Below are positions 12,047-59,567 of a stretch of 64,000 nucleotides of DNA, piece after piece. The first letter of the stretch is position 1; each line of letters opens with the position of its first letter. A program made the translations under genes and the position numbers. Below the pieces are notes generated by a model that ran no database searches, was not told the origin of the DNA, and was given only the letters and a program-made list of their open reading frames with translations. Source of the stretch: a virus (Duplodnaviria > Caudoviricetes); the IMG/VR virus record IMGVR_UViG_3300028601_000021, positions 32,001 to 96,000 of that record; one strand, 5' to 3'.

Positions 12047-12064
12047 TCACTGTAGTAATATATA
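12047..12064 (-). promoter_or_regulatory. phiKZ-type early promoter motif TATATATTAC-N4-GTGA
   Basis: Plus strand TCAC-tgta-GTAATATATA; the same motif precedes other minus-strand blocks. Confidence 0.65.
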
Positions 12065-16932: not shown

Positions 16933-16999
16933 TGATTTGATTTAGTTCACTTTATTTTTAACCGTATTTTAAGCAATTTAATTTGTGGAGTACACCACT

Positions 17000-19363
17000 A
17001 TGATGTTTGATGCCAATGCAAATCCCACAGCTGAGAGCATGTTCGATGCCCTGACAGTCGCGACGGAATCTTTCATGCCCCAGAATCAGGGAGCAGCCGT
17101 TCATTGGACGGATAACCTGTCCGCTCAGGACAAGTCCCTTATCGGTAAAACTTTCCGTGAAGTTTGTCGTTTTATCAATGACAATACTCTTTATGGTAAA
17201 GGCACTCCGGTCGCAGATAACCTTTTCACCACTGGTGTGGGCAACGAGTCGCTGAATCCTTCAGTGAATGTCGTGAACAACATCGGTGTGTCCAAGATCG
17301 CCGACCTCTGCAAAGCTTGTGGCGTGCGTGCTCAGGACCAGAAGAATGCAGTCATGGCTATTGGTCAGCTGCTGGTCAAGATGACTGCTGCCAACGAGAA
17401 CATGTCTCTGTATCGCGACAAACATTTCTCCAACGCTGCTGACTCCGTCGCTGGTAAGTCCATGCGTCTGGTCGACCTGCGTGAAATGCTGCCTTCTTCC
17501 CTGCATGGTGAGTTCCTGAACCAGGCAGCTGGTAACGAAGCTTTCGGTGCTGAGATTGACCGTGTCCTGCCCGACATCCGTGTCTCCATGGCAGTGACCC
17601 TGTTGAAGTTCCATCGTGGTATCCTCGATCGCATCATGCATCGTCGTACCTCTCCTTCTACGATCATCAAGTACGTCATTCCTTACGCTGAAGTGTATGA
17701 CCTGATGAAGTCCATGGATCAGTCCGCTGCAGTCCGTAACGGTAAGGTCCATCGTGTACCTTTCATCAACCTGTATGCTGATCCCAAGGTCGTCTCCAAC
17801 ACTCTGCGTCCTATCGTTGTCCTGAAGGCAAATGATACCGCTGATACCGTCCTGCGTGATGGCGTTCTGAAGCCTAACTGCAAGACCAACGTCATGGACC
17901 TCAGCCGCGTAGCTGGTCAGATCGGTAACAACCACACTGACTACACCGACATCATCGCCGATGGCGTTATCCTGGACAAGGTCTATGTACAGCTGTCTAA
18001 GGTCATCGGACCCGACACTGTCGTAGAAGAATTCGAATTGGTTACCCGTTCGTTCTCCAAGGCTCGTTTGCAGATGCAGGCTAATACCCTGGATTCCGCT
18101 GATCGTGCTACGATCTTCAACCAGTTCTTCAAGTTCAATGAAACTAAGAAGACCACCGCTGGCGCTGACAGTGTGATCCTGGCCGGTCTGACTCCTTCCG
18201 ATTGTATCGAGATCGAAGTCAACATCGCTCCTACGATCAACCTGAAGTGGCACGACGTTGCTTCTTCCGCTACTCTGTTTGTTCGTCCTTACAGCGCTAC
18301 TGGTGCAGCTCCTGCTGCTGCCGTTACCACTGCTCTGACTGGCCTGGAAGCTACCATGGTCGGTTTTGCTCTGGATGCCAAGTACAGTGAAGAGAACCTG
18401 CGTAAGTCGAATGTGGCTATCCGTTCGCATTACCGTACGATGGATTGGGAAATCCCTGTCGGTCGTAACTTCATCGTCGACTATGCGATGAACGAGTCTC
18501 TGCCCGAATACATCATGGCTAACGTGACCGAAGCTATCTCTCTTGGTCAGGATCATCGTGCTATCGATATGATCATGAAGACCATGATGGATGTCTATGA
18601 TCGTGGTCGTGAAGAGAATGCCGATCCTAACTTCCGTGAAGATCTGTACAAGCTCGGCTTTGATTATGTTGCTTCTCAGCAGGTTCGTCCTACTGTGTAC
18701 CTGGGCGCTATCGATCTGGAAGAAGTTGACACCATCCGTAGCTCCGACATCCTCGGCGATATCCGCCAGTATGTTGAACTGCAGCTGATCAACATCCTCT
18801 CCCTGCTTCATCAGAATAGCTACTACAAGACTCAGCTGAATGCCGGTGAGAAGCCTGTGTACAAGCTGGTCACCTCGAACATCATCCTGGAAAACCTGTT
18901 GAATGTCCCGCACATCCACAATCATCTCCAGGCTGCTGCTCAGGATGCTTCTGATACGGATACCGTCGAATACCGTCGTGTCCTGCCTTCCGGTGTTGTA
19001 CTGGAATGTGTGACGACTACTTTCGACTACCTGCGTGACAAGATCATCATCATTCCTTTCCGTGCGAATGATCCTGAATCCGTCCTGAATGCTGGTCATA
19101 ACTGGGATTACGGTACTTACCTGGCCCATTACAACCCGCAGATCGCCAATGGTGTCAATAAGCGTGTGTTTGCGAATGCTCGTGAAATGCCGCTGATGAC
19201 TAACCCCATTGGTCTGATCATGGAAGTCCGTAATATCGCTAAGGTCATCGATCTGTTCCAGCTCGTTGATCCTCGTGGTACTTCCGGTCTGGACATCCCG
19301 AACATCACGAGCAAGCTCCCGGATACGTCCGCTCTGGCTGCTCCTGGTAACAAGACCTGGTAA
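17000..19363 (+). CDS. major capsid protein (phiKZ gp120-type)
   Basis: About 790 aa with strongly biased high-expression codons; propeptide ending AGNE|AF; synteny with DnaB; GGAG RBS before ATG 17000; UUCG terminator follows. Confidence 0.85.
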   Translation: MMFDANANPTAESMFDALTVATESFMPQNQGAAVHWTDNLSAQDKSLIGKTFREVCRFINDNTLYGKGTPVADNLFTTGVGNESLNPSVNVVNNIGVSKIADLCKACGVRAQDQKNAVMAIGQLLVKMTAANENMSLYRDKHFSNAADSVAGKSMRLVDLREMLPSSLHGEFLNQAAGNEAFGAEIDRVLPDIRVSMAVTLLKFHRGILDRIMHRRTSPSTIIKYVIPYAEVYDLMKSMDQSAAVRNGKVHRVPFINLYADPKVVSNTLRPIVVLKANDTADTVLRDGVLKPNCKTNVMDLSRVAGQIGNNHTDYTDIIADGVILDKVYVQLSKVIGPDTVVEEFELVTRSFSKARLQMQANTLDSADRATIFNQFFKFNETKKTTAGADSVILAGLTPSDCIEIEVNIAPTINLKWHDVASSATLFVRPYSATGAAPAAAVTTALTGLEATMVGFALDAKYSEENLRKSNVAIRSHYRTMDWEIPVGRNFIVDYAMNESLPEYIMANVTEAISLGQDHRAIDMIMKTMMDVYDRGREENADPNFREDLYKLGFDYVASQQVRPTVYLGAIDLEEVDTIRSSDILGDIRQYVELQLINILSLLHQNSYYKTQLNAGEKPVYKLVTSNIILENLLNVPHIHNHLQAAAQDASDTDTVEYRRVLPSGVVLECVTTTFDYLRDKIIIIPFRANDPESVLNAGHNWDYGTYLAHYNPQIANGVNKRVFANAREMPLMTNPIGLIMEVRNIAKVIDLFQLVDPRGTSGLDIPNITSKLPDTSALAAPGNKTW

Positions 19364-19377
19364 TATCTGCTTTATAC

Positions 19378-19409
19378 TAGAGGTAGGGTACTTCGGTACC
19401 CTACCTCTA
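19378..19409 (+). terminator. terminator of capsid operon, C(UUCG)G loop
   Basis: TAGAGGTAGGGTAC-ttcg-GTACCCTACCTCTA. Confidence 0.8.
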
Positions 19410-19494
19410 TCTCTTTATACAAAAAATTAAATAGTCGATGTATTAAAGTACCCTGTCTCCACTATGGTGTAGTGGAGACAGGGATGATGAATAC

Positions 19495-19677
19495 TCAATC
19501 GATATTAAGAGGGGTGAGCTCGATACTCATCATCTCTTCCATGGGTGCCGCTAGTATAGCTTCCATCTTCTGATGGAGCACCTGGAGTTCCTCGTCGGTG
19601 CGGTAACACATGAAGTTACTCTTCAGTGCCGCCATACTAGCTTCCATAGGATCTTCGATCCATTCAATATTACTCAT
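19495..19677 (-). CDS. 60-aa small protein, paralog A (I.WI.DPM....A.LKSNF.CYRTDEEL)
   Basis: Clear paralog of 19907-20074. Confidence 0.75.
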   Translation of the reverse strand: MSNIEWIEDPMEASMAALKSNFMCYRTDEELQVLHQKMEAILAAPMEEMMSIELTPLNID

Positions 19678-19696
19678 AACAATACCCTATTCCTGT

Positions 19697-19848
19697 CGAA
19701 ACTAGATACCCCTACCATGTCAGTGTGGTAGGGGTATCGTTTCTCTATATGATTAAAAAGATAAACCTTTAACGGAAAGCACAGCTATCCGATTTTAAAA
19801 TAGGTATAGTACCTATAGATTTCATCCTTCTAATCTGACAGAAGGGTA
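19697..19848 (-). ncRNA. putative structured RNA leader, copy A
   Basis: Conserved with 20092-20247, with compensatory pairs and G-U pairs that only work on the minus strand. Confidence 0.55.
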
Positions 19849-19906
19849 ATACGGTATCTATCATTACCTATCTCTACTATTTTGTAGTAGAGATAGGGGT
19901 TTGGTT

Positions 19907-20074
19907 TTAGATCTCTGTATCTTCTGTGTGGTGTGATTTGTACTCTTCGGCGATCTTAGTCACTCGTTCGTACAAGGTAGCTAATTCTTCATCGGTGCGG
20001 TAACACCAGAAGTTGCTTTTTAGCATAGCTTCCATCACGTCCATAGGATCAGTGATCCACTTAATATCAGTCAT
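19907..20074 (-). CDS. 55-aa small protein, paralog B (not in ORF track): MTDIKWITDPMDVMEAMLKSNFWCYRTDEELATLYERVTKIAEEYKSHHTEDTEI
   Basis: AGGAGG RBS; translated by hand; homologous to 19495-19677. Confidence 0.8.
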   Translation of the reverse strand: MTDIKWITDPMDVMEAMLKSNFWCYRTDEELATLYERVTKIAEEYKSHHTEDTEI

Positions 20075-20091
20075 ACTGGTACCCTCCTATT

Positions 20092-20247
20092 GAAACCAGA
20101 TACCCTACCGAGTTATATTCGGTAGGGTATCGCATTTCGCTACACGATTAGAAAGATAAACCTTTATACGAATAGTACCTACTACTCGATTTATACATAG
20201 GTAATAGTCCCTATAGATTTCATCCTTCCAATTATAACAGAAGGGTA
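20092..20247 (-). ncRNA. putative structured RNA leader, copy B
   Basis: Same stems and conserved blocks as copy A at 19697-19848. Confidence 0.55.
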
Positions 20248-20295
20248 CAAAAAAGATAGACACCTTACTGTAATAGTAAGGTGTCTATCTATGGA

Positions 20296-21027: not shown

Positions 21028-21150
21028 ATGCAGCTCCTTTACATGATTTAATTGGTTTACTTCACTTAAGTTATATATACGTGAAAAAAATTGATCAGCT
21101 ATATAGAGACTACGGTACCAGTAGCATGAGCTACTGGTACTGTAGATATC

Positions 21151-22491: not shown

Positions 22492-24765
22492 TTACATTTT
22501 GTTGAGCTTAAACGTGATAGCACACATAGGAGCATCCCCGTATGCCATATACTCCACTACGATATCGGATACACTTGTGTGGTTCTGTCCCATAGTGGAA
22601 TCGGATACAGGAAAAGTCTTCTTAATAGTAGCCATCACATCCAACAGAGGATTATCCCAAATAATGGAATTCTTGGGGATATCCATTTTCACCACAGACA
22701 GAGTGTCTACTTCTACACCTAGTACATTGAAATGACCTTTAGATTTCTCCAAAGGTGTCTGTATGAGATAACTGGGTGAGATGAAAATACCAACCTTAAC
22801 TTCTTCCAATCCGGTCCTACGGAAGTTGTGCACGACCTGTAGAATGTTATCTCTTACTTCGTCGTAAGCCAACTGTCTGATATCTTTCGTTTTGTTGTTG
22901 AAAGATTCCATATGTGGAAATGTAAAAGGCACCTGCTGTACCTTTTGTTTAAAAGGAGAATCCATCTTGGTACCATCAGTGGGCCAAGGTGAAAGTAAGT
23001 TCTTCAAGAATTGCTCAGTGAAATCTTCACCGTCATCCTCTTGATCGGATACTTCTTCTTTACCGATGGGATCTTTTACGACTCTCTGTTCCTTGAGCTG
23101 TTCTACACCATCTACCAATACCTTCATCTGCGTATTGATAGAAGAAAGCTGGGTGTAGATATAGGAGAACTTAGAGTCGAATACTTCACCACCTTGAGAA
23201 GGCTGCCTCATATATACCTGCTTGGGTGCTGGTACTTCTTCTACATTTTCCAGGTTGTCTACCTTTTCGACCAATTCCGTCATAGAATCCATGATGGTAT
23301 CGATCTTTTCTGTATGCTTATCGATATACAGAAGTCTGTTATCGAAAGCATTCATTTTGGTATCCACAGCAGACAACTTTTCCCACAACTGACGGAAGTC
23401 CGTACGAAGTCCATTGACTTGATTTGCATTGGCATTCTGGCATGATCTGACTGAAGCCAATGATTCTATCGTACTGGTACTATTACTGTTAACGATATTA
23501 ATGGACTTAGACACACAAGATACATTATTGGAGATTTCATTTATACGCTCATCCATCTTATCCATACGGGACAAGATGGTATTGAGCTTTTCATCGATAC
23601 TATCCAGAGTCACTTTTGGCTTTTCATCAGTGACAACAGATTTGTTTACCTGTACAGTATCACTCACCTTGTAAGTTGGAGAGGGTGCGTCGACTGGTTT
23701 TATTACACTAACAGACATTTCATTATCTCCTTTTTCGATAGTGGATTGGTTTATTGGTTTGACAGCCGATATAGGTTCATACAAACCTATCAATTTCGGA
23801 GAAGCACTATATATTACCTTGTCATTTCTATTCTTGGAGGGGTCATATCCTTCACGAAGCAGATAACCACGATCGCATAACAGACCCAATACATAGTTCT
23901 CGGAACCGTATTTGACCAAGTTAGATGTTCTTATATCCCTCGTAGTTATCGTTTTCGGAAATGTCAGGTAAATAAATTCGATAACTGACTTGACCGCATC
24001 GAATACAGCTGTGGTGCAGCTAGGGAATTCCTTTAGAAGTTGTTCTTTTACACGGAGTTCATCGTTCATCTCGGATTCCTCTACCGTAGTATTATCAGGC
24101 ACTACTGCTCCATGTGATTTATACAACTCCAATAACTTTTCAGTAGCCACATACCTTATTCTTGTATTACCCGCTATGTATTTACCAGAAACAGTAACCC
24201 GTTCCACATAACCAATCTTTATCAATTCAATGATACAATATGTGACTTTATTCATATCTGATTTTTTCAAGTCACACATTTCTTTCTTGGATATAGGTTT
24301 AGGATAGTTCCGGAAAAGAGATTCAGTTACAGAATAATATCTATCTAACACGGTAGATGTGGAAAAAGGAAAGAGTTTCTTTAGATCTTTTACTATAGAA
24401 ATAGTAAATTCACTAGTATTCGTAGCATTCATGATTTCTCCTTTTTGTATAACGGAATTACCGTTATCCTTTTTACCCCTAAGTATTTCATTGAGTTCCA
24501 GTAACTTGGAAGTAGCTGCCAGACACAATACACCTTCATATATTCCTGTTCCAGTAGTGGTGGTTATCCACCCATGACTACGAAGCATGTCTACTAAACG
24601 CGAGAATAATGCTTTAGGTAACTCCATACTGTTACGCATGTCAGTGTATCTAGCAGCTTCCGGATGATCCCATGTAATGAAATTCAATATATTACACGTA
24701 AGCTCTTTTTCAATTTCATTACAGGATTCTAAATCTCTCTCTAATTTTGTTGAGAGTTCATCCAT
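22492..24765 (-). CDS. protein with three tandem winged-helix-like repeats, a coiled coil and a C-terminal domain
   Basis: The motif L...G[WY][ILV].......[YL].A[TS].KL..L occurs three times; heptad region at roughly aa 385-560. Confidence 0.65.
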   Translation of the reverse strand: MDELSTKLERDLESCNEIEKELTCNILNFITWDHPEAARYTDMRNSMELPKALFSRLVDMLRSHGWITTTTGTGIYEGVLCLAATSKLLELNEILRGKKDNGNSVIQKGEIMNATNTSEFTISIVKDLKKLFPFSTSTVLDRYYSVTESLFRNYPKPISKKEMCDLKKSDMNKVTYCIIELIKIGYVERVTVSGKYIAGNTRIRYVATEKLLELYKSHGAVVPDNTTVEESEMNDELRVKEQLLKEFPSCTTAVFDAVKSVIEFIYLTFPKTITTRDIRTSNLVKYGSENYVLGLLCDRGYLLREGYDPSKNRNDKVIYSASPKLIGLYEPISAVKPINQSTIEKGDNEMSVSVIKPVDAPSPTYKVSDTVQVNKSVVTDEKPKVTLDSIDEKLNTILSRMDKMDERINEISNNVSCVSKSINIVNSNSTSTIESLASVRSCQNANANQVNGLRTDFRQLWEKLSAVDTKMNAFDNRLLYIDKHTEKIDTIMDSMTELVEKVDNLENVEEVPAPKQVYMRQPSQGGEVFDSKFSYIYTQLSSINTQMKVLVDGVEQLKEQRVVKDPIGKEEVSDQEDDGEDFTEQFLKNLLSPWPTDGTKMDSPFKQKVQQVPFTFPHMESFNNKTKDIRQLAYDEVRDNILQVVHNFRRTGLEEVKVGIFISPSYLIQTPLEKSKGHFNVLGVEVDTLSVVKMDIPKNSIIWDNPLLDVMATIKKTFPVSDSTMGQNHTSVSDIVVEYMAYGDAPMCAITFKLNKM

Positions 24766-26087: not shown

Positions 26088-26105
26088 CTACTTATGTAAT
26101 ATATA
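26088..26105 (-). promoter_or_regulatory. early promoter motif
   Basis: GTAATATATA at 26096-26105. Confidence 0.6.
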
Positions 26106-30503: not shown

Positions 30504-30521
30504 TCACCTTTGTAATATATA
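30504..30521 (-). promoter_or_regulatory. early promoter motif
   Basis: TCAC-cttt-GTAATATATA. Confidence 0.65.
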
Positions 30522-42159: not shown

Positions 42160-42177
42160 TCACTTTAGTAATATATA
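42160..42177 (-). promoter_or_regulatory. early promoter motif
   Basis: TCAC-ttta-GTAATATATA. Confidence 0.65.
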
Positions 42178-52917: not shown

Positions 52918-52935
52918 TCATTTTAGTAATATATA
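52918..52935 (-). promoter_or_regulatory. early promoter motif
   Basis: TCAT-ttta-GTAATATATA. Confidence 0.65.
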
Positions 52936-59549: not shown

Positions 59550-59567
59550 TCAATATAGTAATATATA
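59550..59567 (-). promoter_or_regulatory. early promoter motif
   Basis: TCAA-tata-GTAATATATA. Confidence 0.6.

Follow-up and report, generated by a model that had tools for sequence, protein, structure and literature searches.

A repeated structured mRNA leader that may occlude the ribosome site of acidic microprotein genes in a phiKZ-like jumbo phage

Introduction

What is encoded where a phage carries, in tandem, two non-coding stretches that can fold extensively, each placed directly before a very short open reading frame (ORF)? Such a locus was noticed in a window of 64 kb (the whole stretch of DNA analysed here), which is part of a 156-kb IMG/VR contig with an estimated completeness of 54% and a G+C content of 38%. 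A preliminary description had proposed an undescribed structured RNA coupled to a microprotein gene, and had listed a riboswitch or attenuator, an autoregulating RNA-binding peptide and a toxin-antitoxin-like pair as what it might be. To our knowledge, post-transcriptional control in nucleus-forming and phiKZ-like jumbo phages is almost unexplored, and we know of no curated cis-regulatory RNA family for them.

Results and Discussion

The phage and the layout of the cassette

A 792-aa ORF at 16985-19363 (+) matched the phiKZ major capsid family PF25620 (E = 6.6e-24), yet tblastn found no match for it among 50,697 deposited phage genomes; judged by this sequence, the host of the cassette is therefore an uncultured, deeply diverged phiKZ-like jumbo phage. 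The cassette is flanked on one side by this converging capsid gene and on the other by a minus-strand early unit of two ORFs (88 aa and 143 aa), which ends at an intrinsic terminator. Two tandem units of approximately 398 bp, with a period of 395-398 bp, were located on the minus strand as first described, each composed of a non-coding leader of approximately 175 nt, an ORF with its ribosome-binding site and a closing palindromic hairpin. Leader A starts 5 nt past the T-run of the preceding terminator. The features are as follows (MFE, minimum free energy; helices are described below).

20254-20290 (-): intrinsic terminator closing the upstream early unit, 16-bp stem and T6
20075-20248 (-): leader A, 174 nt of non-coding sequence ahead of the ATG; MFE -72.2 kcal/mol, z = -8.0
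20236-20247 (-): leader A, 5' strand of P0, UACCCUUCUGUU, anti-Shine-Dalgarno in the consensus and MFE folds
20148-20231 (-): leader A, three-way junction; P1' 20219-20231 with 20148-20160, P2 20197-20214, P3 20169-20188
20092-20138 (-): leader A, P4, a 13-bp perfect hairpin, 2x2 internal loop and 5-bp lower stem
20080-20091 (-): leader A, 3' strand of P0, carrying the Shine-Dalgarno sequence AGGAGGG; P(unpaired) 0.01 in the full leader
19907-20074 (-): ORF A, coding for an acidic orphan microprotein of 55 aa with net charge -7
19867-19897 (-): 13-bp hairpin 3' of ORF A, without a U-tract in the sense direction
19850-19866: spacer, remnant of a terminator 5' arm
19678-19849 (-): leader B, 172 nt of non-coding sequence ahead of the ATG; MFE -68.3 kcal/mol, z = -7.5
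19837-19848 (-): leader B, 5' strand of P0
19821-19833 with 19753-19765 (-): leader B, P1'
19800-19816 (-): leader B, P2
19773-19791 (-): leader B, P3
19698-19743 (-): leader B, P4
19683-19697 (-): leader B, 3' strand of P0 with the Shine-Dalgarno sequence
19495-19677 (-): ORF B, paralogous to ORF A and coding for an acidic orphan microprotein of 60 aa with net charge -9
19451-19483 (-): 14-bp hairpin closing unit B
19378-19409 (strand not assigned): palindromic hairpin with a perfect 14-bp stem, situated between cassette and capsid gene, plus-strand terminator for the convergent capsid gene

Exactly two occurrences of GAAGGATGAAATCTATAGG and two of TAAAGGTTTATCTTTYTAATC were counted in the 64 kb, where 0.03-0.05 would be expected of each motif, and neither BLAST nor a search with a covariance model of the leader (R1, see below) found any copy of the cassette beyond these two in the whole 156-kb contig.

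Relatives and copy number

Peptide and capsid look-ups in ENA and Logan assemblies recovered approximately 16 contigs, on which the capsid product is 787 aa and approximately 97% identical where the gene is whole. One unit is present in L004 (L004:16-377), L007 (L007:2580-2935) and L043 (L043:784-1139), two are present in the window, L003, L005, L006 and L034-L040, and three in L041 and L042, where the third cassette sits between A and B (L041:1728-2121, L042:791-1184). The single unit of L004 combines an A-type leader with a B-type ribosome site and ORF, the junction lying between P4 and the ribosome site, which implies unequal crossing-over between leaders. The leader of the middle unit of L041 is likewise a mosaic, with a B-like P2, an A-like P3 and a new, rewritten but fully compensated P4 stem; it is followed by a 72-aa ORF and then by no hairpin.

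More distant relatives, L008-L010 (capsid identity 73%, 67% and 60%), carry unrelated genes at the locus and gave no match to the covariance model. On the contigs compared, the element thus does not extend beyond one narrow lineage, within which the locus is a hotspot of copy-number variation. There was no match among the 50,697 phage records to the cassette (blastn) or to the peptide (tblastn), and exact and gapped motif scans of IMG/VR, together with back-translated peptide and capsid scans, gave nothing beyond the window's own record. A gapped motif scan of JGI metagenomes returned 20 matches, all of which were attributed to chance, as none was accompanied by other features of the leader.

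Predicted fold of the leader

A consensus fold was obtained with RNAalifold on ten leaders and agreed with independent MFE folds. Its outermost helix, P0, is a feature that was absent from the preliminary description: the 5' CCCUUCUGU is complementary to the Shine-Dalgarno region approximately 150 nt downstream, and the predicted pairing is of (U)ACCCUUCUGU(Y) with (R)ACAGGA(AUA)GGGUA, the Shine-Dalgarno sequence lying in the 3' strand. P0 encloses a three-way junction (P1', P2, P3) plus P4. P1' consists of 13 bp (UURGAAGGAUGRA with UUUAUYYUUYUAA) and closes the junction with P2 and P3, while P4, an interrupted hairpin of 18 bp, has a 5-bp lower stem, a 2x2 internal loop and, stacked above these, a perfect hairpin of 13 bp. 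The stems noted earlier were all recovered, namely P2 (ATAGG/CCTAT), a compensatory P3 (comparing the copies, two pairs are fully compensated, one has changed from G-U to A-U and copy B has a single U-U mismatch) and the 13-bp hairpin, into which one copy has a whole C:G pair inserted relative to the other.

Nine of the ten leaders reached this architecture, P0 included, as their own MFE, as did a third leader type, and both leader folds were retained in the MFE of the 861-nt bicistron. The z-scores against dinucleotide shuffles were -8.0 (A), -7.5 (B) and -6.6 (third leader type). The ribosome site of the third type is AGGAAGAAGG, and P0 re-registers onto AGAAGG there, keeping six perfect pairs. 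All ten leaders contain G-U pairs (4-9 per copy) and fold 6-25 kcal/mol better in the sense than in the antisense orientation, so the fold belongs to the RNA that carries the ORFs. No variation was seen in the junction strands AAAU and UAAAGG or in the helix bases, and distal pairs of P2 and P3 covary in this small sample from one lineage. A scan of the 64 kb with Rfam 15 gave no match at the gathering thresholds. The best sub-threshold match, ncr1575 (29 bits against a threshold of 60), was rejected; it involved many non-standard pairs and its score was driven by a hairpin and AT-rich sequence.

Covariation and selection

Covariance model R1 was built from five A-type leaders with a hand-written structure and was used to re-align all 31 copies, 15 of them distinct. 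Among the 15 distinct leaders from approximately 16 contigs, 97.6% of 866 pair cells were standard, compared to 40-47% when the 3' partners were slid by 1-3 columns. Ten pairs had changed on both sides, and the covariation score was 0.211 versus 0.122 ± 0.008 in shuffled alignments (0 of 500), figures that are to be read with the structure having been derived from the same sequences, the alignment fitted to the model and the sequences being close relatives; as all come from one narrow lineage, many of the covariation "events" are shared by descent. The clearest cases were two pairs in P3 (A-U/G-C and U-A/C-G) and two in P2 with three pair types. One pair of P0 also covaried (C-G, U-A, U-G), and P4 exists in three fully compensated versions, one with a whole C:G pair inserted. 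P1' showed no double changes, just one-sided G-C/G-U and A-U/G-U switches, and its pairing therefore rests on invariance and wobble changes.

The claim that the non-coding part is at least as conserved as the ORF held: leaders A and B are 73% identical including gaps (stems approximately 93%), while the first 41 codons of the ORFs are 58.5% identical (third positions 44%). Similarity between some leaders is inflated by recombination between copies, as in the mosaic leaders of L004 and the L041 middle unit. ORF A differs from ORF B at 87% of synonymous sites, which is saturation, whereas the leaders are separated by a Jukes-Cantor (JC) distance of 0.34-0.42; the duplication is therefore old. 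A- and B-type leaders are distinct in all of the phages, yet keep the same pairs. B-type orthologues have a leader JC distance of 0.11 where the dS of the ORF is 0.77-1.0, with differences of 2.6-4.3% in their paired and 10-28% in their unpaired columns; over orthologous leaders generally, the range for paired columns widens to 2.6-6%, that for unpaired columns staying at 10-28%. These comparisons indicate that the leader is under strong purifying selection. The leader is punctuated by indels whose lengths are not multiples of three and is thus non-coding, while the ORFs gave dN/dS values of 0.12-0.36 in all informative pairs and are thus genuine genes.

A short upstream ORF beginning MKSIGTI had been noted in the leader and is present in both copies of the window; its frame is not conserved, as it runs for 10 codons in A-type leaders, 18 in B-type leaders and 13 in unit B of L006. 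A 1-nt indel in P2 shifts the frame, and the AUG lies inside P1' with zero spacing after GAAGG. Control by a leader peptide was rejected on the grounds that neither frame nor length is conserved.

The microproteins

Peptides A and B are 49% identical, and both are hydrophilic and without a membrane or hydrophobic segment (net charges of -7 and -9, respectively, by our own count). No family match was found in Pfam or PHROGs. Among 5.8 billion proteins there were four 90%-identity clusters only for the peptides; when 1.8 billion representatives were searched in full with HMMER, the matches were the two known clusters and weak ones to long proteins in multiple stretches, presumed to be spurious, and the ESM Atlas returned nothing. 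An AlphaFold model of the peptide comprised two helices (pLDDT 68) and was considered too weak to justify a fold search. An ORF directly follows the leader in 31 of 31 copies. The 72-aa ORF resembles the A and B peptides in a 21-residue stretch alone (BLASTP E = 0.005; hhalign probability 2%) and has no family match and no relatives outside its own contigs. The suggestion of an autoregulating, RNA-binding peptide is disfavoured: with net charges of -7 and -9, and with the leader reused before a nearly unrelated ORF, the peptides are unlikely to bind their own leader.

Two minor points were observed in the course of these searches. A 489-aa protein named KaiC is listed in the 90%-identity cluster of the 55-aa peptide, which is probably a clustering artefact. 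Separately, the stop codon of ORF A is CAA in L006 (L006:6766-6960, minus strand), and the frame runs 10 codons into the following hairpin to give 65 aa.

Transcription of the cassette

The 156-kb contig contains gTATATATTAC-N5-TGA, a strongly conserved consensus, in 12 exact copies, which with few exceptions are on the minus strand and lie 45-120 nt before start codons. Jumbo-phage early promoters consist of an AT-rich motif of approximately 10 nt centred near -10 (PMC7598289), and the consensus fits this description. The phage therefore probably uses AT-rich early promoters of the kind seen in jumbo phages with their own RNA polymerase, by analogy with which dependence on host-type promoters would be unlikely. 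The sites in the window are listed below; scores are from a position weight matrix (PWM) on which the 12 exact instances score at least 24.5.

12055-12064, 26096-26105, 30512-30521, 42168-42177, 52926-52935 and 59558-59567 (-): instances of the early-promoter-like consensus
21070-21079 (-): nearest upstream early-promoter variant, cacgTATATATAAC-N5-TGA, PWM score 25.6, heading the unit that ends at 20254-20290

No early-promoter-like site was found near any leader (best PWM score at most 1.1). A k-mer enrichment analysis recovered the early motif and the Shine-Dalgarno sequence but no convincing middle or late motif; the late promoters of phiKZ consist of only TATG and cannot be predicted (PMC7598289). 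TATG is present in A-type leaders only, and no promoter-like motif is common to the A, B and C leaders. A scan for sigma-70-type sites gave the count expected from shuffled sequence. On the opposite strand two promoter-like sites were seen, neither of them common to both copies and their number being as in shuffles. An exact TATATATTAC occurs at 23808-23817 (+) inside a 757-aa minus-strand gene, which could reflect chance or an antisense start.

In the spacer upstream of copy B, alignment reveals the 5' arm of the terminator found before copy A, with the 3' arm and T-run deleted, and there is no terminator before units B and C. Given this spacer, the hairpin of ORF A without a U-tract and the L041 middle unit without a hairpin, co-transcription is the simplest arrangement, and the units are probably transcribed as a polycistronic RNA. 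RNA could enter unit A either by read-through of the terminator at 20254-20290 or from an unrecognised middle or late promoter near it. The idea that the leader is an attenuator did not survive inspection, as the 13-bp hairpin lacks a U-tract; P4 is followed by UCU(A/G)GUUUC(G/A)A, and it is terminator-like on the opposite strand only.

A predicted lock on the ribosome site

The predicted probability of the Shine-Dalgarno sequence being unpaired rose from 0.01 in the full leader to 0.27 without the 5' strand for A, and from 0.31 to 0.62 for B. When successive prefixes of the leader were folded, a CCCUUCU:AGAAGG hairpin appeared first and was displaced once the 3' strand of P1' had been made, after which the 5' strand was free. 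Enforcing the early hairpin costs 14.8-15.6 kcal/mol, and in the resulting alternative fold the U/C-rich strand that is freed in copy A takes the Shine-Dalgarno sequence as its partner instead; neither predicted conformation clearly frees the ribosome site. Both mutually exclusive pairings that had been proposed for RGAAGG thus exist in silico, but a balanced switch with a clear ON state does not emerge, the gap being approximately 15 kcal/mol. For a riboswitch the observations diverge: the invariant core with covarying distal stems is aptamer-like, whereas a fold of comparable stability that frees the ribosome site is lacking.

The leader is probably a structured, ribosome-site-occluding mRNA leader, which is a known kind of element, although this one is absent from Rfam and belongs to no described family; with covariation that is real, the original proposal of an undescribed structured RNA coupled to a microprotein gene is upheld. 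The predicted folds and the sequence comparisons tip the balance slightly towards each unit being a small protein gene under a cis-acting, default-closed translational gate located in the leader. During transcription, the 5' CCCUUCU would pair first with AGAAGG; once transcribed, UUUAUCUUUCUAA would capture AGAAGG to form P1', and the freed CCCUUCUGU would close onto the emerging ribosome site, leaving the unit translationally shut by default. Opening would need a trigger, for which a phage or host protein or a ligand at the invariant junction core is a candidate; cleavage of the RNase III-like P4, a helicase and ribosome standby are further candidate routes. The acidic microproteins would be the cargo, plausibly host-takeover or anti-defence factors, and not the regulators.

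RNase III sites are found in phage polycistronic mRNAs, examples being the R sites of T7 and the lambda N leader. P4 resembles them in being a duplex of approximately 18-20 bp with a 2x2 internal loop that lies between cistrons and beside a ribosome site, and its cleavage, if it occurs, would part the anti-Shine-Dalgarno strand from the ribosome site; the rest of the phage leader has no counterpart in the T7 and lambda sites.

An invariant core surrounded by covarying distal stems suggests a binding partner at the junction. That the core is a true sensor, of a small molecule or protein or of an infection-state or defence signal, gating a shuffling array of acidic microproteins is nevertheless rather unlikely in our estimation. 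The leader does share with three-way-junction riboswitches (purine, TPP) an invariant junction, covarying distal stems, a competed strand (AGAAGG) and a ribosome site within the fold. It differs from riboswitches in that the alternative fold is approximately 15 kcal/mol less stable, no Rfam family matches, the anti-Shine-Dalgarno strand lies 5' of the junction and a single phage lineage carries it; the genes, moreover, are orphan acidic microproteins and not metabolic or transport genes, and their context gives no hint of a ligand. Were the sensor reading true, jumbo phages would possess a portable "sensor plus ribosome-site lock" cassette that is duplicated and reused before new genes.

Alternative explanations

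In phage T4, simple hairpins occlude the ribosome site of genes e, soc, 49 and I-TevI and a late promoter lies inside (PMC3014915), and the same temporal gate could operate here with no sensor at all, read-through early transcripts being occluded and transcripts from an internal middle or late promoter lacking the 5' strand and being translated. The parallel is close in several respects, since in both cases an upstream leader strand pairs, here by prediction, with the Shine-Dalgarno sequence or start, the element lies downstream of earlier-expressed genes and, in T4, transcripts with the strand are silent (PMC3014915). The cassette is directly 3' of the terminator of a unit headed by an early-promoter motif, the anti-Shine-Dalgarno strand begins 5 nt past the T-run, removal of that strand raises the predicted accessibility of the ribosome site (an RNA starting inside the leader could not form P0), and a phiKZ-type late promoter, being only TATG, would escape prediction (PMC7598289). 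We nonetheless consider such a gate unlikely. The T4 hairpins are local, whereas the phage leader strands are approximately 150 nt apart and enclose a three-way junction and a long hairpin; a local hairpin would do, so the conserved junction and P4 are left unexplained. No internal promoter is identifiable, with no motif common to the A, B and C leaders and TATG in the A type only, and each cistron of the array has its own copy of the element in front, B and C having no terminator before them, so that their 5' strand would be in any read-through RNA.

The folded RNA might itself be the product, as a stable non-coding decoy, a scaffold or a processed small RNA to which the ORFs are secondary. 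Such a role would suit the very stable fold, the invariant junction core and a leader that is far better conserved than the ORFs and is kept even before the marginally similar 72-aa ORF. It seems rather improbable, given that the closing helix uses the Shine-Dalgarno sequence of the following ORF in all three leader types, that no leader without an ORF was found among 31 copies, that the ORFs are under purifying selection and that there is no terminator 3' of P4. It is very unlikely that the similarity arose purely at the level of DNA, with terminators and repeats homogenised by unequal crossing-over and gene conversion and no regulatory fold: although close relatives have one, two or three copies, mosaic leaders occur in L004 and the L041 middle unit and P4 stems resemble the stems of neighbouring terminators, the differences fall in loops, stem changes are compensated, G-U pairs make the fold strand-specific, and the same pairs are kept by A- and B-type leaders that are distinct in all phages.

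Long-range pairing locks the ribosome site of the small ORF in the hok/sok and aapA1 toxin mRNAs, where a transient 5' hairpin forms during transcription. Both the long-range lock and the transient hairpin are predicted in the phage leader, and a type I toxin-antitoxin-like system, in which the 5' end locks the ribosome site in this style and an antisense RNA or processing exerts control, would also be in keeping with the early 5' hairpin that is later replaced and with small ORFs in a multi-copy module. The phage leader, however, comes without a hydrophobic toxin, a conserved antisense promoter-like site or evidence of 3' processing. Both peptides are hydrophilic and strongly acidic, and neither a membrane segment nor anything toxic-looking is predicted in them; antisense promoter-like sites are not conserved between copies, sigma-70-type sites being as frequent as in shuffled sequence; by analogy, the AT-rich early promoters also make host-type promoter dependence improbable. 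The toxin-antitoxin-like pair that had been offered earlier is thus most improbable.

If the default-closed gate is correct, the arrays of one, two and three units in near-identical phages offer a testable model for how the translation of accessory microproteins is timed or limited. The leader could also serve as a portable module for reporter work, its value being limited by the narrow distribution and by the lack of a cultured phage or host.

Hairpins in neighbouring intergenic regions

Perfect hairpins of 12-16 bp were seen 3' of the preceding gene in many intergenic regions of the contig (by eye, uncounted). The motif TTTTATA is 9-fold enriched in upstream regions of the contig and may represent terminator tails or part of an unrecognised later-class promoter. 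A 9-mer, GGTAGGGTA, is common to the hairpin at 19378-19409 and P4 of leader A, and is confined to P4 of leader A and the capsid-gene terminator (sites 19382-19405 and 20101-20129; 4 matches versus 0.53 expected). P4 of the L041 middle unit (L041:1843-1876) is similar to the terminator stem that precedes the cassette. Judged by these sequence likenesses, hairpins may have been exchanged between element types as modules.
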